This document shows positions 6,561 through 26,131 of a stretch of DNA of 26,131 nt, piece after piece. Position numbers and translations under genes: made by a program. Positions within the stretch are counted from its first letter, which is position 1, and every line of letters begins with the position of its first letter. The notes under the pieces are model-generated. The model searched no databases and was not told the DNA's origin. It worked only from the letters and a program-made list of their open reading frames with translations. Origin of the DNA: a virus (lineage: Duplodnaviria > Caudoviricetes); the IMG/VR virus record IMGVR_UViG_3300025696_000043, positions 1 to 26,131 of that record, one strand, 5' to 3'.

Positions 6561-7841
6561 ATGGTTAACACAAGTACTATGAATGGTAAAGAAGAACGTT
6601 ATGTAATTAAAAGAAGTGGTGAAAAAGTCCTCTTCGAAGCTGAAAAAATAAAATATGCAGTACTCAAAGCGATGCAAACTGTTAGTGAAATCGATGATGA
6701 GATGGCTGAAAAAATTGCGAGAATTACACGTAAAAGTCTATTTAGAGACGACAAAGATAAAGTCCCAAATGTTGATGAGATTCACGACATGGTGGAGAAT
6801 AAATTAATGGACAATGGTCTTAATGATGTTGCGAAGGAATATATCGTATATCGAACTAAGAACCAACCAAATATTTTCTCTAAAAGAACTAATTTAAAAC
6901 CTTATGAGTATCCTAACTTAAGTGAGTATGTGGACGCTATTAGACACTCATACTGGGTTCATACCGAATTTAACTTCACTTCAGATATTCAAGATTATAA
7001 AGTGAATTTAGATAAAGGTGAAAAAACCGCAGTTAGAAGAGCAATGTTGGCGATTTCACAGGTTGAGGTTGCAGTTAAATCATTTTGGGGTGACATCTAC
7101 AAAAGGATGCCGAAACCTGAAATTGGTAATGTAGGTGCAACATTTGCGGAATCAGAAGTTAGACACGCTGATGCGTATTCTCACTTGATTCAGTTGTTGG
7201 GTCTTAATTCAGAATTCGAGAATCTAATGCAGGTTCCCGCAATTCGTAGAAGAGTTAAGTACTTAGAAAAAGCAATTGCAACATCTAAATCTGTAGAGGA
7301 CCGTGAGTACTTTGAGTCGGTGGTATTATTCTCAATGTTCGTTGAGAATGTTTCACTATTCTCTCAGTTCTTAGTTATTATGTCGTTCAACAAACATAAG
7401 AATATGTTGAAAGGTATTAGTAATGCTGTCGAAGCGACCTCGAAAGAAGAAAATATCCACGCTGGATTTGGTTTTGATATTGTAAACATTATTAAATCTG
7501 AAAACCCAACATGGTGGACTGACGAATTAAAAGAAGACCTTATCGCGGCAACGATGGATGCGTTTGAGGCGGAAACGGAAATTGTTAATTGGATTTTTGA
7601 AGATGGTGATTTGGAGTTTTTAACTAAAAACCAAACAATGGAATTTATTAAGCATAGATTCAATGTATCATTAAACTCCATTGGTGTTGATAGTTTATTT
7701 GAAATCAACGAAGCATTGTTGGAAACAACTGAATGGTTTGATGACGAGATACTAACCAGTAAACACACCGATTTCTTCAATAAAAGAAGTATTAACTATA
7801 GTAAAAAATCTAAATCGATTACATCAAACGATTTATTCTAA
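6561..7841 (+). CDS. nrdB: Ribonucleotide reductase class I beta subunit with N-terminal ATP cone (class Id / NrdBi-like)
   Basis: ATP cone at ~6600-6854 (VIKRSG...F...KI..AV.KA...VDEIHDMVE..LM...AKEYIVYR); ferritin-like ligands QVEVAVK, ESEVRHADAY, FVENVSLFSQF, EENIH; C-terminal DFF...NY...DLF. Confidence 0.95.
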   Translation: MVNTSTMNGKEERYVIKRSGEKVLFEAEKIKYAVLKAMQTVSEIDDEMAEKIARITRKSLFRDDKDKVPNVDEIHDMVENKLMDNGLNDVAKEYIVYRTKNQPNIFSKRTNLKPYEYPNLSEYVDAIRHSYWVHTEFNFTSDIQDYKVNLDKGEKTAVRRAMLAISQVEVAVKSFWGDIYKRMPKPEIGNVGATFAESEVRHADAYSHLIQLLGLNSEFENLMQVPAIRRRVKYLEKAIATSKSVEDREYFESVVLFSMFVENVSLFSQFLVIMSFNKHKNMLKGISNAVEATSKEENIHAGFGFDIVNIIKSENPTWWTDELKEDLIAATMDAFEAETEIVNWIFEDGDLEFLTKNQTMEFIKHRFNVSLNSIGVDSLFEINEALLETTEWFDDEILTSKHTDFFNKRSINYSKKSKSITSNDLF

Positions 7842-9649: not shown

Positions 9650-10114
9650 ATGGCAGACGGTAAAACATATGGAATTAACTTTCCTTTTCAGGATAGTAAA
9701 GAAGGGAAATATCTCTCGCTTTCTCAAACGGCAGATGAGGAGATTAGGACCGACTTACTACATTTGATACTAACTAGAAAAGGTAGTAGATATTATTTAC
9801 CTGATTTTGGTACAAGAATATATGAATTTATTTTTGAACCGATGGATGGGACAAGTTTTGAGGCAATTAAGTCGGATATTGAAAATGCGGTTGAAACTTA
9901 CATACCTAATTTAACAATAAATGAGATAACGATAACACCATACTTAGAAGATTTAGATATTCAGGGTGAATTAAATGTAGAAAAGTTAGGTGTTGGAGGT
10001 ATATATAGAATACCTGGTCGAGGTGTCGAAGAGTATACTGCGAAATTAAGAATAGATTTTACTATTACCGATAGTACTTTCCAAACCAAAGATTTTATAA
10101 TAATCAATATTTAA
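9650..10114 (+). CDS. gp25: Baseplate wedge protein, gp25/GpW family
   Basis: LILTRKGSRYYLPDFGTRIYEFIFEP matches the gp25 signature (T..GER...P.FG..l...lFEP); precedes a gp6-like gene. Confidence 0.9.
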   Translation: MADGKTYGINFPFQDSKEGKYLSLSQTADEEIRTDLLHLILTRKGSRYYLPDFGTRIYEFIFEPMDGTSFEAIKSDIENAVETYIPNLTINEITITPYLEDLDIQGELNVEKLGVGGIYRIPGRGVEEYTAKLRIDFTITDSTFQTKDFIIINI

Positions 10115-10120
10115 TAGTAG

Positions 10121-11959
10121 ATGGCAAGTAAGAAAATTTCATACACAGAAAGAGACTTTGAAGGGTTGAGACAGGATTTGGTAAATTATACCAAACAATA
10201 TTATCCTGAATTAATCGATAACTTTAATGATGCCGCGGTATATTCTGTTCTTATGGACCTTAATGCTGCGATTGGTGATAACTTAAATTATCACATTGAT
10301 AGAAGTATTCAAGAGACGGTTCTTCAATACGCACAGCAACGTTCATCAATCTTTAATATTGCCAGAACTTATGGTTTAAAAATACCGGGTAACAGACCTT
10401 CAGTTTCGATTGTTGATTTTTCTGTAACAGTACCAGCGTTTGGTGACCAGGAAGATTCAAGGTACTTAGGTATCTTAAGAGCCGGTTCACAAGTGATTGG
10501 TGCAGGTCAGGTATTTGAAAATGTTTATGATATTGATTTTGCTTCACAGTACAATAATGAAGGTTTCCCTAACAGAACAAAAATACCTAACTTTGATTCT
10601 AATAATGTATTAATTAATTACACTATTACTAAAAGGGAGGTTGTTGTTAATGGTTTAACTAAAGTATTCAAAAAGACAATCAACCCTAATGATGTTAAGC
10701 CGTTCTTTGAATTCTTTTTACCTGAACAGAATGTATTAGAGGTTGTTGATATTATTCAAAAAGATGGTACATCATTTCAGTCAACGCCAACTTACTCTGA
10801 ATTTGTGAATACTCAAGACAGATGGTATGAGGTTGAATCATTAGCTGAGAGTACTGTTTTTGTTGAAGATACGACAAAACCATCCGACTTACCTGGTATT
10901 AAGGTTGGTAGTTATATTGATACGGAAGAAAGATTTATCACTGAATATACACCTCAAGGGTTTATGAAAGTACAGTTTGGTGGTGGAACTACGACACCTG
11001 ACGACCAACTCGCTGAGTTTGCGAGAAATGGGGTGTCTATGAGAATTCAGGATTATCAAAATAATATTGGTTTAGGTAGGACCGTCAAAGCAAATACCAC
11101 GTTATTTGTTAAATATAGAGTGGGTGGTGGTACATCATCTAATATTGGTGTTAACTCGATTAATCAGGTGGGTACCGTAAATTTCTTTGTAAATGGACCC
11201 TCGAATACTAATAACCAAACAGTAATCAATTCATTAACTGTTAATAATGTTACTGCTGCGATTGGTGGAGCTAATCAACCATCGATAGAGGAAGTGAGAA
11301 ACATGGTAACATTTAATTATGCATCACAAAACAGGGCGGTTACTATCAATGATTATAATGCGTTAGTGAGAAAAATGCCAGGAAAATATGGGGCTCCTGC
11401 AAAGACCGCTATTACAGAAAAAGACAATAAGATTAATATTAACGTATTATCTTATGATGCTAACGGTAGTCTTACTCAGACAGTTTCGAACACATTAAAA
11501 CAAAACATTGCAAATTATCTATCAAAATATAGAATGATTAATGATTATATATCAGTTAACGTTGGTCAGGTAATTGATTTGGAATATGACTTATCTGTTG
11601 TATTGGACTCAGGTCAAAATCAAGGTACGGTTATCACTAAAATCATTGATGAGGTGTCTAAATATATGGCACCAATAGATAGAACTATGGGTGGAAACGT
11701 ATTTATATCTCAGATTAAGAAAACTATTCAAGATGTTGCAGGTGTAATTTCAATTACAGAACTTAAAGTTTATAATAAAGTTGGGGGTCAATATTCTTCA
11801 TCAGAGACATCTCAGAGATATGTGGATTCAGATACAAAAGAGATACAATTAGTTGATGAAACAATATTTGCGGAACCTTCACAAATCTATCAAGTCAGAT
11901 TCCCTGAGAAGGATATTAAGGTTAGAGTTAAGAACCTTAAAAACGTTGACTACAAATAA
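10121..11959 (+). CDS. gp6: Baseplate wedge subunit, T4 gp6 / baseplate J-like
   Basis: N-terminal RDFEGLRQDL, ETVLQYAQQRSSIFNIARTYGLK, central FGGG and YRVGGG, GG...SIEEVR...QNRAVTINDY motifs; 612 aa. Confidence 0.88.
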   Translation: MASKKISYTERDFEGLRQDLVNYTKQYYPELIDNFNDAAVYSVLMDLNAAIGDNLNYHIDRSIQETVLQYAQQRSSIFNIARTYGLKIPGNRPSVSIVDFSVTVPAFGDQEDSRYLGILRAGSQVIGAGQVFENVYDIDFASQYNNEGFPNRTKIPNFDSNNVLINYTITKREVVVNGLTKVFKKTINPNDVKPFFEFFLPEQNVLEVVDIIQKDGTSFQSTPTYSEFVNTQDRWYEVESLAESTVFVEDTTKPSDLPGIKVGSYIDTEERFITEYTPQGFMKVQFGGGTTTPDDQLAEFARNGVSMRIQDYQNNIGLGRTVKANTTLFVKYRVGGGTSSNIGVNSINQVGTVNFFVNGPSNTNNQTVINSLTVNNVTAAIGGANQPSIEEVRNMVTFNYASQNRAVTINDYNALVRKMPGKYGAPAKTAITEKDNKININVLSYDANGSLTQTVSNTLKQNIANYLSKYRMINDYISVNVGQVIDLEYDLSVVLDSGQNQGTVITKIIDEVSKYMAPIDRTMGGNVFISQIKKTIQDVAGVISITELKVYNKVGGQYSSSETSQRYVDSDTKEIQLVDETIFAEPSQIYQVRFPEKDIKVRVKNLKNVDYK

Positions 11960-12034: not shown

Positions 12035-15000
12035 ATGTCTAAGTCATATAGAATACGTACAAAATTGGGAACTGACCAAAACATTCGAATGAATGTGGAG
12101 CAGGACTTTGATTTTCTTGAAATCTTATCATTGAAGTTAAGACAAGAAGATGTGTACTCAAGATTCTGTGCTGATTACGGTGTTGTTGTTGGTAGAGTCG
12201 TAGCCAATAGTGGGTTTGGTATTCCAAATGCACGGGTATCTATTTTTATTCCTGTGGAAGATATGGATTTAGAAGACCCCGTAATATCAACCTTATACCC
12301 TTACAAGTCACCAACACAAAAAAATGAAGATGGGTATAGGTATAATCTTTTACCTTATGAGAAACAATATGGTGGACACACACCGACGGGTACTTTCCCT
12401 TCAAGGTCAGATGTATTAACTCGTAATGAGGTATTGGAAATCTATGAAAAGTATTACAAATTTACTGTAAAAACAAACGATTCAGGTGACTTTATGATTA
12501 CCGGTGTTCCGTTGGGTAATCAGAAGATTGTATTGGATATGGACCTATCAGATATGGGTTGTTTCTCTTTGAGACCTCAGGATTTGATTAGGATGAATAT
12601 GGGTGTTGCCGAGCAGTTTGACGGTTCAAATTTTAAATCATCAACAAATATTGATGAATTACCACAAATTATTAGCCAAGTAAAAGACATTGATGTTGCA
12701 TCATTTTGGGGTCAAGAGGACTTATGTAATATTGGAATCACGAGAAACGATTTTGATTTAAGGGAGTTGGGTATTGAGATTCAGCCGACAGCCGTGTTTA
12801 TGGGTTCTATCTTCAGTGATGTTGACAGTAGACCAATCAAACCTAACTGTAAACCAAGAACGGAGCAGGGTGATTTATGTAACTTAGCCACGGGTCCTGG
12901 TGAAATACTCGCAGTTAGACAGACTATAGATATTGACGATAATGGGGACCCTATATTAGAACAATATAGTTTACCAAACTCAGGTAAGGTTATAGATGAG
13001 AATGGTGCTTTTGTTACCGATGTCCCAATGAACTTAGATTATGTGGTTACTAATGAGTTTGGTGAGACTGTGTTATCTAATGACCAATCTATTGGTGTAC
13101 CTACAAAGGGTAAGTATAGATTTAAAATCAAGTATCAATCTGAGGAAAATGGACCACCATTTGAGGGAGACCAGTTATTTCCTATTATTGGTGATGTTAT
13201 GAGAGCTAATTTTATTGTTCCACAAATCCGTGAGTACGGTTGGAACGGTACAATCAATAATTCAGGTGTTGACCCTTCAACTAAGGATACTGAGACTAAA
13301 GTCAATGTTAGCTTTTTAGACCCATCACAGATTACGGAAACTAAAACGTTGTTAATACAGTCTAATACTACTGTGACGATTCCATTCAATGACAACCTTG
13401 AGGCGATTGAATTAACTGTTAATGGTATAGTTAGAAACGAAAAGTGGATAGAATTCCCAAATGGGGGGACACTGACTATTCAGGTGACTAAGAAAACTAT
13501 TGAAATAGGAAATCCACCTCAAACTGTGGGTCAGGATGTTACCGTTGAAGTGGAACAATATGATTACGACTACATTCAGTTTCAAAAGTCTTATGCCTTC
13601 TCATTGGATTGGGATGAATATGCCGATAAGGATTCTGCGGTCAAGTGTGAGGATTCATTTTACTTGATGAACTATAACAAAGTTTATACACCATCACAAA
13701 TGATTGATGAGTATAGGTCAGGTTTTGGTCGTGCTAGATTCTTAGGGATTAAGGAGATATTGGATAGAGGTTGTGAGAACGATACTAATAAATTCCCTGT
13801 CAATGATGGGGTTAAAAACTTTAATTTCTTATTCTTAATTGTGAATCTGTTGTTAACTATTTTCACACCTGTTATATTATCATTAACGGTTATTGGTCAT
13901 GTTATTTGTTTCTTATGGCCAATAATAAGGATAATAATAAATTTCCTTGTGACCGTTGTTGTTGTTGTGATAAATTCGATAATTGCGATAATAAATTTAA
14001 TAAGGAAATTATTTGGTAGTAAAAAAGACCCGATTCAACCGTTAACATTTCCTTCTTTATCTAAGAAGTGTCCATTATCCGCAATTCCATTACCAAATCT
14101 TTCATATCCTGAATGTCAAGCTTGTGCTTGTGAAGAAAGGCCTGCAGGTCAAAACACTGAAGTAGGTGAAGTTGAGAGTAATACCACCTTATTGATTGAT
14201 ACTAACGAAAATGAATATTACAATAACTTGGTGGGTTATAATAATGATGATACCACTGAATGGTTAAAATTCACCAATGGTTTTCAAACGGTGATGGCTG
14301 GAAATGACCTTTACGGTGACGAACAACAATCCTTAACTCCTTGGTTGAACTCCGATAGTAATCCTGATGTCTCACAGAATACTTGGTCAAGAGATATTCC
14401 ATTAAGTGAGAGATTTAATCTTTTCAACGTTAAGGCTAAATATCATCAATTTAATGGGTATAATAGAATTGACACTTACATCAATCCAACAAAAAATAAT
14501 TCCAAAAAACATAGTGATAATGTTGTTATGTTAGTCCTCGACCCTGGTCAGTTAAATACGTTTAAATCAGGAACGATTGTTTCATTCAATGACCCTAATA
14601 AAACAAATGACCCGAATGTAAGTGGGGGTACAACAGGTACTACAATTTTTATTACGCAAAGTGCTTCAACGGTACAAATTAAATCTATGTCACCGACTAA
14701 TTTGGGTTCAGCTATTAATAATTACGTAATCACAGGTACTACAGGGAGTTCAGTTAATTATGGTTTTGCATCTGATATCGAATATTTCCAAGTCATAACG
14801 GGGCAGACTCTTGCTGATTATGAGAATACTATTGGAGTTAATAGTAGTTCAAATGGATTGATATCATACGGAGCCCCGAACGACACCCTTGGTCAATTCT
14901 ACCTATTCGGTTGGCAAAAAGTCACAAAAACCGGTGGTACAAATGCCCTTTTTGAACCTACAACGTATCCTAAAGGAAGTCTTAATGGGGACTATTTTGA

Positions 15001-17212
15001 ATCTGAGGTTCCGAATATAAAATTGAATTCTGATTGGGGCAACCAATGTGTCGTCTTTTTGGTGAGAGGTGTCGACCCCAATACACCAAGACAGGATATT
15101 AAATATGACTTATCTAAATTGTATGGATTTAATATGGGTAATGGACCACAGGTAAGGGGTAATTTCAAAATGAATATCCCTATTCAGCCATATGCAAATG
15201 CCAACTCAGATTGGAGAATACCGAGACATGATAAAATAAATGATAATGGTTCTAATTGTTCTGAAACTGGTTTACCGATATATTTTGATTCATTCTCATT
15301 CTCCCCTAATTCTTCAATGTATCAGGATTATCAGAATAGGAATACTAAGTTCTATTCAAGTATGGATAAGAATAATAAAGATGATAATAAAAACCCTGAA
15401 TATAAAAATGATGCAACCAGAACTCCGAATTTTACAAATCTTGCTGGGAACTGGGGTCGGATGCAAGAAAACGGAGATTTCTTATTTAATTATAGGCAAG
15501 ATGAGGTTGTTGAAGGTGGTAGTTTGATTATGTCTAAAGATGGTACACCTAATGGAGATGGTGATTGGTCTTACGCGTCACCAGTATATTACAAAAACGC
15601 CCCTAATATGTCATTAACAATGTCAGACTCATCCAAGTTGGTTATGAGGACAGATAGGTTACCAACATCAGATAATACATATAAGAGATTTTCTCTTCAT
15701 CAAAACAAGAGGTTTGCCATTTATACAATCGAAGATAGTGGAGAAGTATCGTCTTTTAATTTTGGTGGTGATGATGGATTTGGTGATGGTAGTGAAGACT
15801 TCAATGAAGATGCAGGTGCAATTGCTACACAAGTTAATGAAACTTTTTCATGTGAAGGTATGGTACCCTTGGAGTGTTATACCGGTAATGGGGAGACAAT
15901 TGGTGTTGAGGCGCCTGATAATCGTTGTTATTATGTTGATAATAAGAAAGAGATTAAGAAAATGTATAATGGATGTTATTACCTTATTACTAAGAACTTT
16001 GCAATCCGTGAAGACTTCCAATCCATAACAGAATGGAGGGCAAGATTCAGAATGATGTTTGCTTTGTGTAATAACGTTGTGAGTTTGACATTTGTTAATA
16101 ATTGGATTAATGGTTCATTATATATGTTTGCGTTCCAAAAGGATAATGTGTATGGTAATGATATTAATAAAACCACATTCACTAGTAATCCGAGATATGT
16201 GTACTGTAAAGACACTACCGTTTATCAAATAGTTACAAATTCATTCTATTACAGGGCTACACCGTACAATCCTAATCAACCACAAGGTGAAAGATTTATT
16301 GGTAGAGATAATGCTCCACAACCAAGAGCCTTTGGTGGGTCAAATGGTGCTAATAAGAAGTTTTTAGGGAATCCAACAACCATTATGGATTTAGGTCCAA
16401 GAGATTTATTTACTAAAGAGATATGTTATAACCCTGAATTTCAAGGATATATTGTTGATAAGATTAAAAGTTCATCGTATAACGATACTTCAGACATATT
16501 ACAACTTTTCGCAATTAGTAGATTAACAGATGCTGGTTTTTGGGAACAGATATTAGGTTTGGGAGACGGTTCAGTTCAGAAATTATTCTCAAGGTCTAAT
16601 CAAAGATTGGACGGAGATGTTGCTCAATTATTAAGTATTAACTCTGAATTTGGTGTGGTACCTTATTTAGGTTCTAATTATACGGATAATCAGATTAGAT
16701 ATATACAGGAAGGTAAGGACCCAGTATTGGGTATATTCTTTAGTGCTAATACAATCAATAGAGATTTGATTAGCCCTGGTAGATATACGTTCGAAGATAC
16801 ACTTACAAACTTCCTAACAGATAACTACGGTCATAATGACCAGCTAGTTCCTTACCATAAGTGGGAGATTATAGATAATAGTACAAGTATATTTGGTACT
16901 CAATATAATGACTGGCGTAGTAAAAAGTCACAAGATGGTATAGGGTCTGTAAACTTTCAAAGTGAAGATAGAATGACCTCACAAAACACATTCAATACTA
17001 ATACTGATATGCCTTCAACACAAAGACCAGGTTACATTTACAACTCTAATATTGTGGGTAATAAAGTTGAAGTGACCGAATCAAAACCCGCGAATTTTAA
17101 AAATAAGATACACAGTGGTTCACCATACTTCTTCTACTTTGGATTAAGAACAGGTGCGTCCTCTATGAATAAGTTTATTGATAAATTTATCTTGAATCAA
17201 GAAAAATTATGA
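12035..17212 (+). CDS. Large putative virion (baseplate/tail) protein, 1725 aa, with N-terminal carboxypeptidase-regulatory-like beta-sandwich and an internal hydrophobic hairpin
   Basis: VVGRVVANSGFGIPNARVSIF...KTNDSGDFMITGVPLG pattern; long hydrophobic stretch at residues ~596-661; directly follows gp25-gp6. Confidence 0.75.
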   Translation: MSKSYRIRTKLGTDQNIRMNVEQDFDFLEILSLKLRQEDVYSRFCADYGVVVGRVVANSGFGIPNARVSIFIPVEDMDLEDPVISTLYPYKSPTQKNEDGYRYNLLPYEKQYGGHTPTGTFPSRSDVLTRNEVLEIYEKYYKFTVKTNDSGDFMITGVPLGNQKIVLDMDLSDMGCFSLRPQDLIRMNMGVAEQFDGSNFKSSTNIDELPQIISQVKDIDVASFWGQEDLCNIGITRNDFDLRELGIEIQPTAVFMGSIFSDVDSRPIKPNCKPRTEQGDLCNLATGPGEILAVRQTIDIDDNGDPILEQYSLPNSGKVIDENGAFVTDVPMNLDYVVTNEFGETVLSNDQSIGVPTKGKYRFKIKYQSEENGPPFEGDQLFPIIGDVMRANFIVPQIREYGWNGTINNSGVDPSTKDTETKVNVSFLDPSQITETKTLLIQSNTTVTIPFNDNLEAIELTVNGIVRNEKWIEFPNGGTLTIQVTKKTIEIGNPPQTVGQDVTVEVEQYDYDYIQFQKSYAFSLDWDEYADKDSAVKCEDSFYLMNYNKVYTPSQMIDEYRSGFGRARFLGIKEILDRGCENDTNKFPVNDGVKNFNFLFLIVNLLLTIFTPVILSLTVIGHVICFLWPIIRIIINFLVTVVVVVINSIIAIINLIRKLFGSKKDPIQPLTFPSLSKKCPLSAIPLPNLSYPECQACACEERPAGQNTEVGEVESNTTLLIDTNENEYYNNLVGYNNDDTTEWLKFTNGFQTVMAGNDLYGDEQQSLTPWLNSDSNPDVSQNTWSRDIPLSERFNLFNVKAKYHQFNGYNRIDTYINPTKNNSKKHSDNVVMLVLDPGQLNTFKSGTIVSFNDPNKTNDPNVSGGTTGTTIFITQSASTVQIKSMSPTNLGSAINNYVITGTTGSSVNYGFASDIEYFQVITGQTLADYENTIGVNSSSNGLISYGAPNDTLGQFYLFGWQKVTKTGGTNALFEPTTYPKGSLNGDYFESEVPNIKLNSDWGNQCVVFLVRGVDPNTPRQDIKYDLSKLYGFNMGNGPQVRGNFKMNIPIQPYANANSDWRIPRHDKINDNGSNCSETGLPIYFDSFSFSPNSSMYQDYQNRNTKFYSSMDKNNKDDNKNPEYKNDATRTPNFTNLAGNWGRMQENGDFLFNYRQDEVVEGGSLIMSKDGTPNGDGDWSYASPVYYKNAPNMSLTMSDSSKLVMRTDRLPTSDNTYKRFSLHQNKRFAIYTIEDSGEVSSFNFGGDDGFGDGSEDFNEDAGAIATQVNETFSCEGMVPLECYTGNGETIGVEAPDNRCYYVDNKKEIKKMYNGCYYLITKNFAIREDFQSITEWRARFRMMFALCNNVVSLTFVNNWINGSLYMFAFQKDNVYGNDINKTTFTSNPRYVYCKDTTVYQIVTNSFYYRATPYNPNQPQGERFIGRDNAPQPRAFGGSNGANKKFLGNPTTIMDLGPRDLFTKEICYNPEFQGYIVDKIKSSSYNDTSDILQLFAISRLTDAGFWEQILGLGDGSVQKLFSRSNQRLDGDVAQLLSINSEFGVVPYLGSNYTDNQIRYIQEGKDPVLGIFFSANTINRDLISPGRYTFEDTLTNFLTDNYGHNDQLVPYHKWEIIDNSTSIFGTQYNDWRSKKSQDGIGSVNFQSEDRMTSQNTFNTNTDMPSTQRPGYIYNSNIVGNKVEVTESKPANFKNKIHSGSPYFFYFGLRTGASSMNKFIDKFILNQEKL

Positions 17213-18909
17213 GTAAGGAACCAAGTCAAATAAGGATAGTCCCAAGCGAAAAACAGTACAAGGGTGCTCCAACATTGGATACAACTTTAGATGTTTCATT
17301 ACAGGGTCAAAAGAGATTGATGGTTGAGGGTGACCGTACAGTACTCGTTAACTTGGCTGAGAGGTTCGATAAGGAAAGACAAGGGTCAGACCTTATGAGG
17401 GTTACTGGTAAAATTACAAATATTTTTGATAATGTTATTTCTGGTAAAACCAATTATAATCCATATCAAAATGACCTATATTATATAGGTGCGTTAAATT
17501 CAGTGACGAGTAATACTTGGAAAGGATATCCACAGTATGATGAATTTACTTTCTTAAGAACTAGAGGTATTGACGGTCATGTTGATTTTATCCCTAAGAG
17601 TTCAACAACATATAATTGGTCAGTATATCTATCGTATCCTTCTGATAATGTTACAGGTCAAAGTATGACTTATAAGAATGAGGAGTTAAGTGCAACTACA
17701 GTATTCAACGTTAGTGATGGTATTCCTTTTGCAATGAAAAAAAGAAAGGTTAATGGTAAAAACTTAATCACTTTTTACTGTGGTGGTAATCATAATCTTT
17801 CTATTGGTGAGTATGTTAAATTATCCTTCAATTATAATGGTGAATCGTTATTTCAAGTTTATGAATTAGGTGACGAAGATTATGATAGTAGTAATAAAGT
17901 ATTTTCAATATACGATTTAGGGTATACGGGTACTACTTTTGGTGATGGAGTATCAGGGACATTTAAAAGGGTAATCAGTAAAAATAATTCAGGTGAAACA
18001 ACATCAAACTATTATGTTAGAAAACATAAAATTCTAACAGATATTAAAGATTATAACTTAACAAGAATGGGTTTTGAGAATAGTCCATTCAGTGATGATA
18101 GTAAGTTAGAATATTCAGCCTTAACACCAAATAATGTACAGAGAACATCTAAAAGAAACGGTAGTCAGGTGGTTTCTTATACTTTTGAAAAACAAATAGA
18201 TATTTCACAGTATAAAGATAATCAAGATAGACCATTAAGTGAGTTATTTGTAACAATTTTAAATAAAGGATATATGGGTTGGTTTAATAAACCATATGGT
18301 AGGTCCTCATCCTCATTAGAAGTTGGTTGGGAGTTTAACTGTTTATCATTAGAAGTTGACCCATGGTGGAGAAAAGATAACACGAATAACAAAGATAATA
18401 TTCCAACTCAGAACTACCAAAAAAATAACCAAACATTCTACTATAATAAGGATTTAACCGATGGTGATGAAATATTAGGTGATTTTTGTGAATGGAATGA
18501 TTATGAGATGGAGGAGTATATAGTGTCACCAATGTTACATAAGTATAGTTATAATTCTACACATTTTATGGATGATAGTACGGTAGTTTTACCGAGTGGG
18601 TATTTATATTATCCACACCATTCTATTACTGTTAGAGATTTTTCACCATATGTTGAGACAGGAAATGTTAACGATGTTGATGGTATCCCTGATTATGCTT
18701 TTTATTCGAACTTCGAACAAAGATGGAGATGGAGAGACCTCTATCCTTACGGTTTTATTGATGGTGAAGGTATTGGTGTTGACCATCCATTTTTAAACGG
18801 TGCACACTATCCATTTAAGGATATAACCTTTTTACAGGTATTGCCACAGAGAACACTGAACTACGGTATTGGTGTGATAACTCAACCATTAATAGACGAT
18901 TGTGAATAA
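17209..18909 (+). CDS. Hypothetical protein, probable virion structural protein (566 aa)
   Basis: ATGA overlap with the previous gene; N/Y/T/S/G-rich composition; located in the structural operon. Confidence 0.75.
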   Translation: MSKEPSQIRIVPSEKQYKGAPTLDTTLDVSLQGQKRLMVEGDRTVLVNLAERFDKERQGSDLMRVTGKITNIFDNVISGKTNYNPYQNDLYYIGALNSVTSNTWKGYPQYDEFTFLRTRGIDGHVDFIPKSSTTYNWSVYLSYPSDNVTGQSMTYKNEELSATTVFNVSDGIPFAMKKRKVNGKNLITFYCGGNHNLSIGEYVKLSFNYNGESLFQVYELGDEDYDSSNKVFSIYDLGYTGTTFGDGVSGTFKRVISKNNSGETTSNYYVRKHKILTDIKDYNLTRMGFENSPFSDDSKLEYSALTPNNVQRTSKRNGSQVVSYTFEKQIDISQYKDNQDRPLSELFVTILNKGYMGWFNKPYGRSSSSLEVGWEFNCLSLEVDPWWRKDNTNNKDNIPTQNYQKNNQTFYYNKDLTDGDEILGDFCEWNDYEMEEYIVSPMLHKYSYNSTHFMDDSTVVLPSGYLYYPHHSITVRDFSPYVETGNVNDVDGIPDYAFYSNFEQRWRWRDLYPYGFIDGEGIGVDHPFLNGAHYPFKDITFLQVLPQRTLNYGIGVITQPLIDDCE

Positions 18910-19699
18910 TTATAGATTTTCAGATAGAGGTATAGAGAGAGAAGTTCAAATTCCTATTGAGCAGTTTTGGGATGTTAATGGTCGTGATGATGCAATTGAT
19001 GTTTTTGAGGAAGAAGTTATCGAACAGGTAATAAATCCTACTGAAGACTTTGAAGTGACAAGGTTTGACCATAAAATATATTCAACAAGTGCGTCGAGTA
19101 TAAACTATGAGTTTTACTTTATACCTGAGAATATTGATGTGACAGGTGCAACATCTACGGATTGGGTGATGAATTATGAGGGTGCGGGATTTAATGATAA
19201 AGAAGTATATTACTATGCTAATTCTTTTAAAAAGAGTTTTTTTAAGTTAGATTTCTACGATTCAAATAATAGTCAACAACAAAAATTATACTTTACTGTG
19301 GTTATTCCAACACAGCAAGGTGAGACGACTTCTGTTGATATTGGAACCAACTCAGTACCCAATGTTGTTGATATTAGAACACCTAATTATAAATTAGACT
19401 ATGTGGGTGACAAAGAAGGGTTTTTCATTTATTGGTTAAGGGATAGAAACTTTATCAATTTAGATGAGTTCTACATGTCTGTAAAATTCTTCAATGGTAA
19501 GACAGGTGATTTTACTAGAATGATGATACAGCCACAATCTAACTTTAATAATTTATTCAACTTCAATAAGGCTGATAATTTTTATACCAAATTAGTTTTG
19601 GACTACGATAATTATGAGTATGAGATGCACAACTTAAATGGTGTGAGAATAGGTACTAAAACAACACCGATAAAATTCTATGAATATGTTAACCCATAA
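18902..19699 (+). CDS. Hypothetical protein, probable virion structural protein (265 aa)
   Basis: GTG start overlapping the previous stop (GTGAATAA); aromatic-rich, beta-strand-like sequence. Confidence 0.75.
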   Translation: MNNYRFSDRGIEREVQIPIEQFWDVNGRDDAIDVFEEEVIEQVINPTEDFEVTRFDHKIYSTSASSINYEFYFIPENIDVTGATSTDWVMNYEGAGFNDKEVYYYANSFKKSFFKLDFYDSNNSQQQKLYFTVVIPTQQGETTSVDIGTNSVPNVVDIRTPNYKLDYVGDKEGFFIYWLRDRNFINLDEFYMSVKFFNGKTGDFTRMMIQPQSNFNNLFNFNKADNFYTKLVLDYDNYEYEMHNLNGVRIGTKTTPIKFYEYVNP

Positions 19700-20781
19700 T
19701 GAAAACACAAAAAACATATATTAAAGTTTCTCCTGAGGTATTAAAAAGTGATATTGTTCAAGAGACTTATAGTGGAAATACCTTTGGTGTTTACTCCGGA
19801 TTAACAGAAATATTGAGTGGTGGAACAGGTGGTAGTTCGTTACTTACTGGCCTAACAATTCCTGTGATGTTTACTCAGTCTTTTAATGATTTGGGTTATT
19901 ATACTCCATTTGATGGTTATATTTTACAAAAAGATGTTGTAAATAACTTTGTTTATTCTGGAAGTTCTAACAATAATTTTGAGGTTTTCGTATATAATAC
20001 TGCGGATAGAGATTTTAAGAAATTCCTACAATTAGCTGATTATGTTATTGATTGGGGTGACGGGAGCTCTACTGAAAAGATAAATGACGTTGCTCCAAAC
20101 TACACCACACACATTTATCCATTTGCGTCCGCATTTACAGTTACAATCACTCAAACTAACCCATGGGGTACTACTGAAGTTAAGAAAGTAGTCAATATTC
20201 CAATGAGCGGGGCTACAATACATAACCCTAACGGGGAGATAACATTCACACCTCAAGGTGGTAGTTGGTCAGGAACACCATTAAGTTATGACTTTATTTT
20301 CAGTGGTGATGCGGAAAATAATATATCATCTCAAGTATCTTCAAAATACACCACCACACCTTTTATTGTGAGTGGTTATACTTCAAGTTTACTAAATAGT
20401 TTAAGTAGTTATGGTTCAATTAGATACGCTACAAATGTACCAATATTTCAGAATGGTCAATTACTTGGAGTTATTAATGAATTAGATACTGATTATACTG
20501 CCTATACAATTAATAATGTTGACTACTATGATTATCCTGATGGTACCACATTATTTATTGCAAACTCTTCAGGTATTACCGATAATGATATTTCAGTTAG
20601 TGCAATTACAAAACAAGAAGTATTATTAGACATGGTTTCTTCACCAGAAATACAGAGTGAAGTATTTATAGACAGAGGCAAGAACTCAGCTTTTGAAGGT
20701 TTAGAGAGGTTGGGTGAGGTTGATAACATAGGAGACTTGACGAGATATGGTTACGGTTTCTATAAAATTAATGAAAATTAG
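19699..20781 (+). CDS. Probable virion protein with a PKD/Ig-like domain (360 aa)
   Basis: YVIDWGDGS...THIYP...FTVTITQTNPWG (~20041-20170) fits the PKD-domain W-x-F/W-GDG...H-x-Y...Y/F-x-V-x-L/I pattern; TAATG coupling. Confidence 0.72.
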   Translation: MKTQKTYIKVSPEVLKSDIVQETYSGNTFGVYSGLTEILSGGTGGSSLLTGLTIPVMFTQSFNDLGYYTPFDGYILQKDVVNNFVYSGSSNNNFEVFVYNTADRDFKKFLQLADYVIDWGDGSSTEKINDVAPNYTTHIYPFASAFTVTITQTNPWGTTEVKKVVNIPMSGATIHNPNGEITFTPQGGSWSGTPLSYDFIFSGDAENNISSQVSSKYTTTPFIVSGYTSSLLNSLSSYGSIRYATNVPIFQNGQLLGVINELDTDYTAYTINNVDYYDYPDGTTLFIANSSGITDNDISVSAITKQEVLLDMVSSPEIQSEVFIDRGKNSAFEGLERLGEVDNIGDLTRYGYGFYKINEN

Positions 20782-20784
20782 AAA

Positions 20785-21690
20785 ATGGCTTTAGGAACTT
20801 ACGGAATTACAAGACCCGCAGATATGTCTCCAGAGGATGTAGAAATAATCATGCATTACACTCCGAGTAGGGATGTGACTGAAGATTTTGTATTAAAAAA
20901 ATTAGACGCGGCTTCTATTTTGACGCCTTATTTCCACAATAATGACACTGGTGGGAATACAAATGAAATTTTGGGTGGGATGTATAATCTAAGATTACCC
21001 TCCAATGAATTTAACCAAACAGGGATTTATACTTTATATGTTCGTCCCGCAGAGATGAGAACAACGATTACAGATTGTGGTGTTTTATCTGCATTGCCGA
21101 ATGTTAAAGGTATTATCATTGATTTGAATAATGTTGACCCTCAATACCGTAATAAGTTTGTTGCCCAAGGATTAGTTGGGTTTAGGGTGGAATACTTAAA
21201 TGATAGTGGAACAAAGGTACCAAATTTTTATAGAATTGTTACCTCTTCATTCTATTGTGAGCCAGTTACAACTAACTTAACAAATAGTTCACAAAAGACT
21301 ATCCGTTATCGTTATGTTGAGAACGGTAGTGATTTATTATTCTGTACGTTGTCACCATCAAGTGCTCCGTCAAATAAACCAAATGCCACACCATTCATCG
21401 GTCAACCAAATCAAAATATTATCATTACTAATACGTACTTTAATCCGGTTACATTAGATATTGAAATGGCTGAACACGACATCGATACTCTTGCGATTGC
21501 ACTTTACGGTAATCAAACTAAGAGTCTTGAGGATGGTATTTACACACTTTATGACCCATCTAACAACATCTACAAACAATACAACTTGTTTGAGATTAGG
21601 GATGAGTTTAATAATCTATTGTTTGAGGTTCGTCAAGATAGAGGTGATAATATCGATTTCAGTAAGAATTTCAATAATGTAATTAATTAA
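20785..21690 (+). CDS. Hypothetical protein, probable baseplate/tail structural protein (301 aa)
   Basis: Tightly packed in the structural operon; no family recognised. Confidence 0.75.
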   Translation: MALGTYGITRPADMSPEDVEIIMHYTPSRDVTEDFVLKKLDAASILTPYFHNNDTGGNTNEILGGMYNLRLPSNEFNQTGIYTLYVRPAEMRTTITDCGVLSALPNVKGIIIDLNNVDPQYRNKFVAQGLVGFRVEYLNDSGTKVPNFYRIVTSSFYCEPVTTNLTNSSQKTIRYRYVENGSDLLFCTLSPSSAPSNKPNATPFIGQPNQNIIITNTYFNPVTLDIEMAEHDIDTLAIALYGNQTKSLEDGIYTLYDPSNNIYKQYNLFEIRDEFNNLLFEVRQDRGDNIDFSKNFNNVIN

Positions 21691-24629
21691 TGGCGAGTAG
21701 AAAAAAATATAGATACCCACCCGCACCCCCTTCAGGAGCAGAAACTTTCTCACCGGATTTGGTGGGATTTCAGCTTGTTGATGGTGGTGGTCTGACGCAG
21801 GGTAACTTTGAATTTACTACTTCTGTTGTTGAAAAGGTCAATCGTACTTTTGAGACGGGTGTATTCTCTAATCCATTTACGTTGGAGAATATGGATATGG
21901 AAAATCTTGAGGAATCAAGAAAGATTTGGGCTCGTAATTTTGGTGTATATCCTAATTATGATGTTTCCGTTGTCACTAATTTTTCATATTACGGTTCATT
22001 ACAAAAAAGACTATCCTCATCTATTACTAAAATCATTAATTTTTTTCCTGCTGCTTTAGAGGTTGATAAAATCTTTACTGATTACACGACGGCAAATACG
22101 GTTAATAGTGTGTCTTACGATTCTGTTGATGATGAGACTACATTTACTATTGATGTTAAAAGAATTAAGAATCCTTTTGATATTGATTATAGTAAAAACG
22201 CCGACAGAAATATGTCCTTAAGGCCAATGGATACCTCACCATATAGGAACTTAACAAGAATGTTCTTAAGATATTCATTGTTTGTAAGTACTGGTGAAAC
22301 CGAGTATAAGGTTCAGGATTTCACACCATCAATCTCATTATCGGCGGGAACTATCGAGTTTGTAGTTCAAGGTAAGCCATTTGGTTCCAACTCATCATCA
22401 ACTGAGAATATTACTTTAAGACCTAATAAGTTCTACATTGAGGAGATTTTTGATGATTCATTTGATGAGGTTGAGAAGTTTTTATTGAATAGATTGGTAA
22501 CTCCTAAGTATACTGCATTGTTTAGGGTACCAAGGGAAGATGACCAAGGTAGATATTATACCTCGGTTGAGAATATTACATGGCCAATCAAGGGATTATG
22601 GAACTTAGATATACAGACGGTTGCCTACGACAATTACCTAAACAAAATCAATGAGATTTCAGAGGTAATGGATAGGTATAAGACTAATCTTATCAGTAGA
22701 TTCTTGGTGACGGGTTCATTTAAGGATTTCGATACTGGTGACCAAAAGATGGAAAAGGTTTTACAAATCTACGGTAGGAGCTTTGATGAGACTAAGAAGT
22801 TTGTTGATGGTTTGGCGTATATTAACTCCGTAAATTATAATCCAAAAGATGATATACCGTCGGTTTTACTAAAAAATTTAGCACAGACCTTAGGTTTTGA
22901 TATTAATATCTCACCAATTACTGAGGATGACTTCTTAACGTCAATATTTGGTACTAAAAATCAATCTATATACCCTGGTCAAACAAGGGATAAGACTCCT
23001 CAAGAGTTAGACTATGAATATTACAGAAAACTAATCATTAATTCAGGTTATTTGTATAAATCAAAAGGTACAAGGGCTGGTTTAGAATTTTTAATGAGAA
23101 TGATTGGTGCTCCGAAAGCCTTAGTAGAGTTTAATGAGACCATTTATATGGCTGATGGACCTATCAACCTTACAGAGTTCAATCAAGAGTTATCTGAGGT
23201 CACTGGTGGTACGAAATTAGATATTTTACCTATATATGTCCCTAATAGTACATATAAAATTAAAGGGGTAACATATACTGCCTTTACGCCACAATCAGTC
23301 ACTACATTTACTCAAGAAGTTAGAGGTGATTACCCTATGGATGAGTATGGTTATCCGAGGGTTGTCCCTGAAAGTGACTCATATTACTATGAAATGGGTT
23401 CAGGTTGGTTTGAACAAACACCCCAACATAGGGCAAATGAAAGTATTGATGTTGAAAACTCAAACTTTACAGGTTCGAATCCAAATATACAAACTTCATT
23501 GGAACCATACACTTATGGTGAGAAGTATTTTAATAAGTTCCGTAATTTTCCTAATATGAATTTGGGTTATGAGCTTATTTCTATTAAAGATAATAAAAAA
23601 TCATGGACTAACGAAAATATTGGTATTAGAAAGGGTACTGGTGAGTTTACATCTGATTATAACGTAATTGACGAGAGATTAGTATTAAATAGAAAAAATA
23701 TTGAGTTATTTATGAATATGGGTCAAGGTCTCACTTATGACGTGTGGCAAATGAGTAGGAATCAGAACTATCCTATACCTTCTACAGGATTGACATCACC
23801 ATATCCAACACCTGGCGGTATTGATTGGACAATTATTGACCCGAGACCAAAAGATAAGTCATTCTTTGAGTTTGCTCAATCTTTTTATAAGAACATGATT
23901 AATGTTCGTAACAGACAGACAAGTAATGGTGGGTATTTAACTTTGGCCTCATTATATTGGAAATATTTGACATCACAACAAGATGTAAACATACCTTCTA
24001 ATAAATACACTTACCAAAAAATGATTGATTACGTTAATGGTATTGGTGATTATTGGATGAGATTAGTTGAACAAGTCATTCCTGCGTCTACGTTGTGGAA
24101 TGGTGGTCAGAGAATGGAGAATGCTGTATTCCATAGACAAAATCATGTATACAGAGTTCAGAGAGGGTGTGAGATTATTATTGTAGAATGTGAACCAACT
24201 ACTACGGATGGTCCTTTATGGAATTATGACTGTACTAATCAAAGTGTTAACTGTGGATTATACCCAACAAAAACCTTCAACCAGATATTATCAGAACAGA
24301 TAAACACTATCGTATCTTCAAGTGGTTATACCACGTCTGAGTGTGATTTAAATAGTGTCGTGAGTGAATGGTATATAGATTTAAGATTAGACTCGGATAT
24401 TCTTGTTCAAGAGAAATACTATACTGGTTATGGTAACGCTGACGCTCCATCAAATACTGATTGGGTTAACGCGGCAATTGCACACTTTCAGTATTTATAT
24501 CAAGATGGTTTAAATTATTCTATTAATGGTAATACCATCACTTTTAGTAATACGGGATGTAGTCCTGATTTTACTGATAAGAAAATCACCTTGAACGTAG
24601 GTATAAACATATCAATTAACTGTGGATAA
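21690..24629 (+). CDS. Putative baseplate wedge protein with P2 gpI / T4 gp7-like segment (979 aa)
   Basis: DDIPSVLLKNLAQTLGF and YYRKLIINSGYLYKSKGTRAGLEFLMRMIG (~22850-23110) resemble the gpI-type L..LA...G and y..KGT..gl..l motifs; TAATG coupling. Confidence 0.65.
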   Translation: MASRKKYRYPPAPPSGAETFSPDLVGFQLVDGGGLTQGNFEFTTSVVEKVNRTFETGVFSNPFTLENMDMENLEESRKIWARNFGVYPNYDVSVVTNFSYYGSLQKRLSSSITKIINFFPAALEVDKIFTDYTTANTVNSVSYDSVDDETTFTIDVKRIKNPFDIDYSKNADRNMSLRPMDTSPYRNLTRMFLRYSLFVSTGETEYKVQDFTPSISLSAGTIEFVVQGKPFGSNSSSTENITLRPNKFYIEEIFDDSFDEVEKFLLNRLVTPKYTALFRVPREDDQGRYYTSVENITWPIKGLWNLDIQTVAYDNYLNKINEISEVMDRYKTNLISRFLVTGSFKDFDTGDQKMEKVLQIYGRSFDETKKFVDGLAYINSVNYNPKDDIPSVLLKNLAQTLGFDINISPITEDDFLTSIFGTKNQSIYPGQTRDKTPQELDYEYYRKLIINSGYLYKSKGTRAGLEFLMRMIGAPKALVEFNETIYMADGPINLTEFNQELSEVTGGTKLDILPIYVPNSTYKIKGVTYTAFTPQSVTTFTQEVRGDYPMDEYGYPRVVPESDSYYYEMGSGWFEQTPQHRANESIDVENSNFTGSNPNIQTSLEPYTYGEKYFNKFRNFPNMNLGYELISIKDNKKSWTNENIGIRKGTGEFTSDYNVIDERLVLNRKNIELFMNMGQGLTYDVWQMSRNQNYPIPSTGLTSPYPTPGGIDWTIIDPRPKDKSFFEFAQSFYKNMINVRNRQTSNGGYLTLASLYWKYLTSQQDVNIPSNKYTYQKMIDYVNGIGDYWMRLVEQVIPASTLWNGGQRMENAVFHRQNHVYRVQRGCEIIIVECEPTTTDGPLWNYDCTNQSVNCGLYPTKTFNQILSEQINTIVSSSGYTTSECDLNSVVSEWYIDLRLDSDILVQEKYYTGYGNADAPSNTDWVNAAIAHFQYLYQDGLNYSINGNTITFSNTGCSPDFTDKKITLNVGINISINCG

Positions 24630-26131
24630 TGGCTAGTTATTATTTTACTTTAACACAAAGGACCAGCGGGGCATCATTATACACAGGTGATACGTATTAT
24701 ATTCAATGGGATACAGGTCTCAGTGGTGCAACTGACGACGCTAATCTACAACTTTTTACTGGAGGTACATATACCTATTTCAACCTTTTCAAACATAGGA
24801 CATGGTCCGTTAATTATGATGGTCAGACTCCGAATCAGACTGTGGACTATACCATGAAGGATAATGACTATAATGGAGGTGGTTCAACTGGATTTCCAGG
24901 TACCGGTATGGATATCCCAACTTTTCCATTGGTTAATGTTTATAAAAAAAATTATTTACTAAATCTTAACGATGATGTTTACTTTGCTGATATTGCATAC
25001 GTTATTGATGGTAACGCAAGCCGAATAGATAGTAGTGGAAATCATTACTTAACAGGTTGGCAATTTAGCTCTGCGGGTGTTACGGATTTTTGGACTTGGC
25101 TCGGAGGTAGTTTAACAACATTAGATGTTGCAAATACTGACCGAAACCCTTGTGGTGATTTAGATATTCCGTTTAGTGCTACGGGTGCGATATCTTACTA
25201 TAATACTAATGGTACTGGGTATGAATATATCTTAACTGAATCGGAATCCAAATGTAATGTAGATGTTACTACTGTTAAAATTGACGGTGATGCTTTATCT
25301 CAAAATCAGGGGTATCTTACTAACTATAACGCATGTTTTACGCCTGGTGACATTTGTTTCAGGCCATACTCTGGTGATACTGCAGATATCACCGTTAGTG
25401 CTTATGAGAATTGTAATGCATGTACAAGTGCCGCGGGTAATGATATAATATATTATAGTGCTGCATCATGTTGTGATAGTTCTGTGTATATATTCACAGG
25501 TGATACTACTATCTTAGGTGGTAGTATTAACGGTGCTCACAGCCAATTAACGGGTATCACAATTAACAATGAATGTGTTGGTCAATATCAACAGATAATT
25601 ACGGGTTACACTACGAATGGTTCGATAACTGGATATTATACACCTACTGGTGAGAATTATTGTGATAGTTGTACTGGTGAAACACCGTGTAATAGTTATT
25701 ACTATTTTGACCCTTGTGACTCGAGTAACTTAAATATTTACCGTATAAATCAAACAGATTATGATAATCAGTTTGGTGGTGGACCAAACCCTGGTAACAC
25801 CTATAGATTTGATGATTTTACTGGTTTACCTGATGGTTGTTATGTTGCGGTTAGTGAGTCACCCTCAATAACTTTTAGTGCTGAATTAATTTCTACGGTT
25901 ACTAATATACCTGGTGGGTGTAGTGATGCTCTTTGTAATGTTCCTGTAACGCCTACACCAACACCTACGGTTTCTGATACCCCATCAGTTACACCAACTA
26001 ATACACCAACGGTTTCTGATACTCCATCAGTTACACCAACAAATACGCCAACAGTGTCTGTTTCGGACACCCCATCAGTTACGCCAACAAATACTCCGAC
26101 AGTATCTGTTTCTGATACACCATCAGTTACT
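24629..26131 (+). CDS. 3'-truncated large putative tail fibre/surface protein (>=501 aa), Cys-rich region followed by Pro/Thr/Ser repeats; absent from the ORF track
   Basis: ATG at 24629 overlaps the previous TAA (TAATG); hand translation MASYYFTLTQRTSGASLYTGDT... has no stop through base 26131. Confidence 0.85.
   Translation, partial: MASYYFTLTQRTSGASLYTGDTYYIQWDTGLSGATDDANLQLFTGGTYTYFNLFKHRTWSVNYDGQTPNQTVDYTMKDNDYNGGGSTGFPGTGMDIPTFPLVNVYKKNYLLNLNDDVYFADIAYVIDGNASRIDSSGNHYLTGWQFSSAGVTDFWTWLGGSLTTLDVANTDRNPCGDLDIPFSATGAISYYNTNGTGYEYILTESESKCNVDVTTVKIDGDALSQNQGYLTNYNACFTPGDICFRPYSGDTADITVSAYENCNACTSAAGNDIIYYSAASCCDSSVYIFTGDTTILGGSINGAHSQLTGITINNECVGQYQQIITGYTTNGSITGYYTPTGENYCDSCTGETPCNSYYYFDPCDSSNLNIYRINQTDYDNQFGGGPNPGNTYRFDDFTGLPDGCYVAVSESPSITFSAELISTVTNIPGGCSDALCNVPVTPTPTPTVSDTPSVTPTNTPTVSDTPSVTPTNTPTVSVSDTPSVTPTNTPTVSVSDTPSVT
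25949..26131 (+). repeat. In-frame tandem repeat of 42/48-nt units encoding VSDTPSVTPTNTPT(VS), running off the window
   Basis: Units begin at 25970 (42 nt), 26012 (48 nt), 26060 (48 nt) and 26108 (partial), preceded by TPTPTPT; units differ mainly at synonymous positions. Confidence 0.95.

Follow-up and report, generated by a model that had tools for sequence, protein, structure and literature searches.

A candidate sequon, [S/T]-[G/A]-x-T, for virion O-glycosylation in a predicted moraphage-like clade of T4-like jumbo phages

Glycosylation of the virion has been reported for a few phages. In mycobacteriophages, the capsid and tail-tube subunits are described as carrying glycans at their C-termini (PMC12619734, PMC12691614, on Freeman et al. 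2023), and virions of the Xanthomonas jumbo phage XacN1 give Schiff-positive bands (PMC5852040). For moraphages, four core glycosyltransferase groups are described (PMC12619734). Among cellular systems, the NGT/Agt system of Actinobacillus, which glycosylates adhesins in the cytoplasm, combines a soluble, sequon-reading initiator with a GT4 elongator (PMC12159676), and protist enzymes of family GT60 start mucin-type chains (PMC8724618), in the case of T. cruzi on Thr (PMC3769586). A literature search, with subscription papers outside its scope, returned neither a consensus acceptor word for virion glycosylation nor a description of the motif treated here. Here, we describe a short word, [S/T]-[G/A]-x-T, in predicted virion proteins of a T4-like phage represented by a 26-kb fragment, the entire IMG/VR record IMGVR_UViG_3300025696_000043 (26,131 nucleotides (nt); referred to below as the window), and then weigh it as a candidate sequon for phage-encoded virion O-glycosylation.

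In the window, replication genes are followed by gp25 and gp6 and then by seven unnamed open reading frames (ORFs; Table 1), six of which carry the motif and are predicted to encode virion proteins because they are positioned behind gp25 and gp6, that is, in the baseplate operon. The initial annotation had counted [ST]GxT by hand, and its numbers, in gene order 5, 3, 1, 7, 0, 4 and 8 (28 in all, the last starting at nt 25673), are exact; the five in the 1725-amino-acid (aa) protein are clustered at aa 863-969 (nt 14621-14941; starts at nt 14621-14930). Its rough estimate was about 4-5 expected hits; 2000 whole-protein or 30-aa local shuffles give 5.4 (maximum 14) and 15-aa local shuffles give 5.8 (maximum 15), and the enrichment outlasts this check. 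Among all spaced three-letter patterns, [ST]GxT ranks top with a z of 9.4, the best z in 300 shuffled sets being 6.4, and a composition artefact is ruled out by the global and local shuffles together with this look-elsewhere test. Downstream, 28 of 77 S/T-G dipeptides have a Thr at +3, compared with 1 of 15 upstream of position 12035, where the single [ST]GxT is the Walker A motif of UvsX, as had been annotated. Also confirmed are the preceding residue, which is Y/F/L/I/V/M in 20 of the 28 sites (background 33%), and the varied codons behind the motif, which mark it as a protein-level signal and rule out a DNA repeat as its source. As [S/T]-A-x-T is enriched too (10 vs 2.3 expected), the full word is wider than first noted, and the claim that gp25 and gp6 are free of it holds for [ST]GxT but fails in gp6 for the wider word (Table 1).

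With the 360-aa protein (40-100% identity), 80 IMG/VR loci were gathered, one of which was dropped for length; with repeats masked, [ST][GA]xT is at least 2-fold enriched in 78 of the 79 others (sum 3039 vs 793, the loci being partly redundant). In 171 non-redundant homologues of four proteins from this group (hereafter the window clade) it occurs 940 times vs 188 expected (5.0x). [S/T]-[G/A]-x-T is an order-specific and spacing-specific word: in the same homologues, the reversed word reaches 1.07x, the word with its first two letters swapped 1.0x, other spacings 1.2-1.5x and a version with Ser at +3 1.45x. Within the word, by comparison, residues interchange at the 20 common sites, with S and T both used at position 1 in 14, G and A both used in 10, and at least three different residues at x in 15, and it is therefore degenerate like an enzyme site. 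Homologues of the 360-aa protein have on average 8.2 motifs, spread over 32 alignment columns, and lineage-specific insertions hold new motif copies; homologues of gp6 have on average 0.2. In three complete relatives (G002, 297 kb and 99% complete; G032; G039), about 200 motifs are found per genome, and their charged, mostly cytoplasmic proteins have no excess over chance (21/29, 17/25 and 28/27).

The distribution of the motif over the particle is visible in the major capsid protein (MCP), for which 50 non-redundant sequences were drawn from 77 full-length ones in the 80 loci, plus G002. An insertion at aa 107-330 has 203 motifs vs 46 expected, whereas the HK97 core of the same proteins, C-terminus included, is depleted (6 vs 17.6). 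The insertion aligns between residues 127 and 248 of T4 gp23, the span of the I-domain and its linkers, and in T4 this domain forms protrusions on the capsid surface (PMC9546572). The MCP motifs occupy 46 start columns, with at least 125 changes on the MCP tree. In three sheath proteins, the C-terminal 290 aa hold 0 motifs vs 1.3 expected, and the N-terminal part that precedes them holds 30 vs 8.7; 24 tube, portal, protease, scaffold, neck and wedge proteins (neck and scaffold assigned by gene position) have 8 vs 8.3, and the tail tube has none in all three complete genomes. As read from sequence, the motif follows an outside-in pattern by domain, in which parts predicted to be accessible are enriched and core parts are not. 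Nor do the hits sit in one turn of one repeated fold, a check proposed in the initial annotation, since they are found in the gp23 insertion, the sheath and the PKD-domain protein. The model of the last of these, the 360-aa protein, is weak, with a mean predicted local distance difference test (pLDDT) score of 55, and places the sites in a hairpin, linkers and strands, which suggests that they share no single structural context.

Among the nearest cultured phages by capsid protein are Flavobacterium phage immuto and Mel-JY01, which use a different word. In immuto, [ST][GA]S occurs 141 times vs 57 expected, with [ST][GA]xT mildly raised (80 vs 58), and in Mel-JY01 122 times vs 40. An immuto-like set was gathered of 79 loci (L410-L488) with 73 MCPs, not de-duplicated (the MCP of immuto itself is at L317:6852-8459). 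In these MCPs, [ST][GA]S is enriched in the insertion (275 vs 65) and not in the core (19 vs 40), [ST][GA]xT in the insertion is at 73 vs 64, and the sheaths have [ST][GA]S with the same outer bias. In 55 scored loci, at least 2-fold enrichment is found in 50 for [ST][GA]S and in 4 for [ST][GA]xT. The same capsid domain thus carries a different word per lineage, a pattern that a demand of the fold would hardly explain and that favours a lineage-specific reader. The immuto clade also carries its own GT-B pair, present in all three further genomes tested (G050, G051 and Mel-JY01) and absent from G002 and G032, so that the expectation that variant motifs of relatives go with different glycosyltransferases is borne out for one related clade. 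An excess of [ST][GA]xT is not found in T4 (50 kb; 18 vs 21 in its structural proteins), LR756508 (260 of 484 kb), XacN1 or RAS14, and [ST][GA]S is not in excess in T4, LR756508 or RAS14; its count in XacN1 is 73 vs 54. In Rhodothermus phage RM378 (L359-L365), S/T-rich proteins are weakly enriched in [ST][GA]S (49 vs 20) and also have an excess of T-x-[ST].

Potential enzymes are encoded in the relatives. A Pfam scan of G002, which covered 152 of about 300 ORFs, revealed GT60, PLOD-type, GT17, GT25, GT2, GT4 and GT-D glycosyltransferases plus decorating enzymes. All three complete relatives have GT60, a YibB-like protein, a GT2 domain and enzymes here referred to as GT-B-405, GT-B-354 and GT2-265, and the glycosyltransferases kept in all three fit the four core moraphage groups, a likeness by gene content. 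The PLOD-type enzyme, GT17, GT25, GT-D and the sulfotransferase were rejected as readers, as among the three complete genomes they are present in G002 alone. The closest relative of the window, G001 (91% on the 360-aa protein), encodes GT60, GT-B-354 and GT-B-405. Of 24 IMG/VR records, most of them fragments, 14 contain the GT-B-354 gene and 14 the GT-B-405 gene. Of 7 named records, 0 contain either gene, and XacN1 has no match to them. The GT-B-354 profile matches PDB 8XSG (E 2e-14), which is AmGGT, a homologue of the Agt glucan elongator (PMC12159676). In a collection of 50,697 phage records, GT-B-354 is without a match, and distant relatives of GT-B-405 occur in 142, mostly phi92-like, those in phi92-like phages being 27% identical; a sequence-profile search of the PDB gave no useful match for it, and its model (pLDDT 67) suggests two Rossmann-like domains. 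GT2-265 gives only weak GT2 matches. For one of the core transferases, clustering at 90% still leaves at least 7,988 relatives. The 27% homologue in phi92 lies in a Stephanstirmvirinae glycosyltransferase cluster, gp163-166 (L490:42200-45376), and LR756501 (735 kb) has a 38% homologue of GT-B-405.

GT60 appears to belong to a different task. It matches 4 of the 50,697 phage records (XacN1, Xoo-sp13, CM1 and RAS14), and the GT60 proteins of XacN1 and RAS14 are 45-47% identical to that of the window clade and part of the same cassette, which is common to the clade relatives and Xanthomonas/Stenotrophomonas jumbo phages (in G002, GT60 is at L086:2106-3371 on the minus strand). Its gene in G001 follows the 301-aa gene at a distance of about 21 kb and is part of the fibre region; from the immuto clade, GT60 is absent (0 of 2 cultured phages, 0 of 2 complete contigs). 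TP[TS] words number 410 in XacN1 and 308 in RAS14, and because these two phages have GT60 and Thr-Pro repeats and not [ST][GA]xT, GT60 likely serves Thr-Pro tracts; in the window clade it is probably part of a second, separate system for such tracts. Very S/T-rich proteins of G002 (L085:9225-16721 and L090:1-2541; 43-44% S+T) are almost free of the motif, and the one with 2499 aa has 2 copies where 27 would be expected. Tract-type and motif-type regions are therefore largely separate.

Taken together, we consider it reasonably probable that [S/T]-[G/A]-x-T is a sequon for phage-encoded virion O-glycosylation. The enzyme-recognition site proposed in the initial annotation is in this way supported in part, by the enrichment, the spread beyond one fold, the variant word in a related clade and the core glycosyltransferases of relatives. 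Several observations weigh on the other side. As the initial annotation had stated, no glycosyltransferase is encoded in the window; no initiating enzyme was identified among the glycosyltransferases of the clade, and the one family that clearly initiates on peptides, GT60, does not follow the distribution of the word (72 vs 58 in XacN1, 38 vs 44 in RAS14). GT-B-354 is elongator-like, and AmGGT itself is described as lacking activity on glycopeptides (PMC12159676); structural proteins of phi92 are little enriched (31 vs 22) despite its GT-B-405 relative. The GT-B enzymes of the window and immuto clades are not detectably orthologous, and the co-variation of word and enzyme, which rests on two clades, is confounded with ancestry. 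Some sites are nearly fixed, x included (TGLT at aa 50, 28 of 32), as a structural site would be, and although the earlier suggestion of surface exposure holds by domain (MCP insertion, N-terminal part of the sheath), the weak model of the 360-aa protein puts sites 225, 267 and 301 in strands. When the virion zone of G002 is left unmasked, whole-protein shuffles reduce the excess to 185 vs 132, as the expected count is raised by Thr/Pro-rich proteins (S/T-rich proteins of G002 after repeat masking: 151 vs 64). Finally, the window clade has no cultured member.

All of the positional and evolutionary evidence speaks for recognition rather than for a particular chemistry, and the word may instead be read by something other than a glycosyltransferase, such as a docking decoration protein or chaperone, or a sulfo-, phospho-, methyl- or carbamoyl-transferase. 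G002 does encode a sulfotransferase, an APS kinase, FkbM methylases and three carbamoyltransferases, but the sulfotransferase and the GT60-linked carbamoyltransferase are unmatched in two of the three complete genomes, whereas several glycosyltransferases are present in all three, and about 200 sites per genome on unrelated folds would suit a catalytic reader over stoichiometric docking. We regard a non-glycan reader as unlikely. Somewhat less likely still is a purely structural element, a Ser/Thr-Gly turn capped by Thr in beta-rich, Thr-rich surface domains, with no reader at all. The motif proteins are S/T/G-rich, several sites of the 360-aa model lie at strand ends or hairpins, and the nearly fixed sites would fit such an element; however, the equivalent gp23 insertion uses the other word in the immuto clade and neither in XacN1 or RAS14, T4 structural proteins show no enrichment, and sites turn over on the MCP tree as described above. 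The SprB repeat (PF13573) has the consensus context [ST]GGT-x-PY. An origin from this repeat was rejected, as [ST]GGTxPY accounts for 0 of the 940 sites in the aligned families and for 1-4 of the roughly 200 motifs per genome.

It is also conceivable, albeit improbable, that GT60 (PF11397), the one known polypeptide-initiating family of the clade, reads the word besides or instead of Thr-Pro tracts. It is present in all three complete relatives and in the fibre region of G001, and the Thr specificity in T. cruzi would match a word whose +3 is strictly Thr, but XacN1 and RAS14 combine GT60 and many TP[TS] words with a lack of the motif, and the immuto clade has a sister word without GT60. Least probable of all, to a degree that makes it barely credible, is that a cytoplasmic enzyme of the host, a member of the Bacteroidota, reads the word. 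The general O-glycosylation sequon of Bacteroidota is D-[S/T]-[A/V/I/L/M/T]. D-[ST]-hydrophobic is not enriched across the 80 loci, where it is often below expectation (nor is N-x-[ST] enriched), and two clades that both apparently grow on Bacteroidota (from the immuto record and the moraphage host prediction) use different words. In favour of a host enzyme, no initiator was identified in the phage, and a phage tail protein modified by a host-encoded system is reported (PMC13445384).

If the word is a glycosylation sequon, a phage-encoded, soluble cytoplasmic transferase would read hydrophobic-[S/T]-[G/A]-x-T on the outward-facing parts of capsid, sheath, baseplate and fibre proteins, the candidate core enzymes being GT-B-354, GT2-265, GT-B-405 or the GT2 fusion. 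The first sugar would be placed on one of the two hydroxyl residues while the subunits fold or assemble, and position 1 is the better guess for the O-glycosylated hydroxyl, since S/T-G/A is common to the words of both clades. With other core and variable transferases to elongate the chain and decorate it, the particle would be covered by a dense glycan coat, which may tune surface charge, adsorption or shielding. More broadly, and here we consider the case for and against to be evenly poised, large T4-like aquatic phages may have a family of clade-specific glycosylation codes, in which each lineage has its own Ser/Thr-Gly/Ala word and its own reader, written on the outer face of capsid, sheath, baseplate and fibres. 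The window clade would then have two codes, with [ST][GA]xT used on folded surfaces and Thr-Pro stalks served by GT60. In that case the sequon would be new, and the glycosyltransferases that initiate on it would probably form a family of their own, likewise new.

Table 1. Motif-bearing and control features of the window (positions in nt)
Feature	Position	Strand	Motifs and remarks
gp25 and gp6, baseplate wedge genes	9650..11959	+	no [ST]GxT; one TAIT in gp6
1725-aa predicted baseplate-region protein	12035..17212	+	5 [ST]GxT, 2 [ST]AxT
566-aa predicted virion protein	17209..18909	+	3 [ST]GxT, 2 [ST]AxT; homologue mean 4.6 motifs
265-aa predicted virion protein	18902..19699	+	1 motif; homologue mean 0.9
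360-aa predicted virion protein	19699..20781	+	7 [ST]GxT, 3 [ST]AxT; PKD-like domain at about aa 95-166
301-aa highly conserved protein	20785..21690	+	0 motifs; homologue mean 0.3; internal negative control
979-aa predicted virion protein	21690..24629	+	4 [ST]GxT, 3 [ST]AxT; homologue mean 5.6
Truncated fibre-like protein, last ORF	24629..26131	+	8 [ST]GxT in aa 19-352
Thr/Pro mucin-like repeat tract at end of last ORF	25946..26131	+	separate second candidate acceptor

The six motif-bearing ORFs gave no informative PHROGs or Pfam match, and the 566-, 301- and 979-aa proteins no NCBIfam match. In an atlas search, the 979-aa protein led only to unnamed viral clusters and the 301-aa protein to leads under 0.9, and the 360-aa protein has no match among the 50,697 phage records. 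The fibre-like protein is at least 2050 aa long in G001. Elsewhere in the window, at 6561-7841, the small subunit of ribonucleotide reductase has an N-terminal extension that resembles the start of the NrdD-like family phrog_487 (aa 13-104); we take the extension to be probably an ATP-cone. G002 further encodes long fibres of a collagen-like kind, which are rich in Gly-x-Lys triplets and have S74 chaperone domains (L082:10632-L083:3677 and L083:12734-14611); they lie close to 2-oxoglutarate-Fe oxygenases and the PLOD-type glycosyltransferase and have no match in G032 or G039; these fibres and the PLOD-type enzyme are possibly a third, collagen-type modification system. A full TonB-dependent receptor, plug plus barrel, is encoded at L083:8153-10708 of the same genome.

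If true, the reading of [S/T]-[G/A]-x-T as a sequon would give a target to core glycosyltransferases that are so far unexplained, in a lineage of jumbo phages that is abundant in aquatic habitats. Virion glycosylation would become predictable from sequence, and a tool for soluble, sequon-directed O-glycosylation might follow. The [ST][GA]S word of a cultured Flavobacterium phage opens this metagenomic pattern to direct mass spectrometry.

Compared with the described systems, the window clade resembles mycobacteriophages in the proposed scheme, where the phage's own glycosyltransferases would coat proteins of the particle with sugar within the bacterial cell. Its motifs, in contrast, are internal and on many unrelated proteins, and the C-terminal acceptor feature of mycobacteriophages is not seen, given the motif-free tube and the depleted MCP core. 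XacN1 is likewise a T4-like jumbo phage with the same GT60 cassette, but it is without [ST][GA]xT, GT-B-354 and GT-B-405 and provides a model for the Thr-Pro tract system, not for the word. In the features tested, the window-clade system agrees with neither the mycobacteriophage nor the GT60-mucin nor the Bacteroidota system. With moraphages, G002 shares a T4-like genome of about 300 kb, GlnA, DnaJ, ClpA, PhoH, dUTPase, a sigma factor and core glycosyltransferases, and by these genes the window phage would belong to a moraphage-like jumbo phage clade; the moraphage account, in its available part, names no target for the four core glycosyltransferases and describes no protein motif (PMC12619734). 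In its logic, the proposed system would work like the sequon-directed cytoplasmic glycosylation of the Actinobacillus NGT/Agt pair (PMC12159676), and GT-B-354 is homologous to the Agt-like AmGGT. That pair, in contrast, makes N-linked glycans at Asn-X-Ser/Thr, a sequon not enriched in the window clade, and no member of the NGT/GT41 family came up among the 152 G002 proteins scanned with Pfam; the analogy is with a soluble initiator and an elongator, here applied to the virion.

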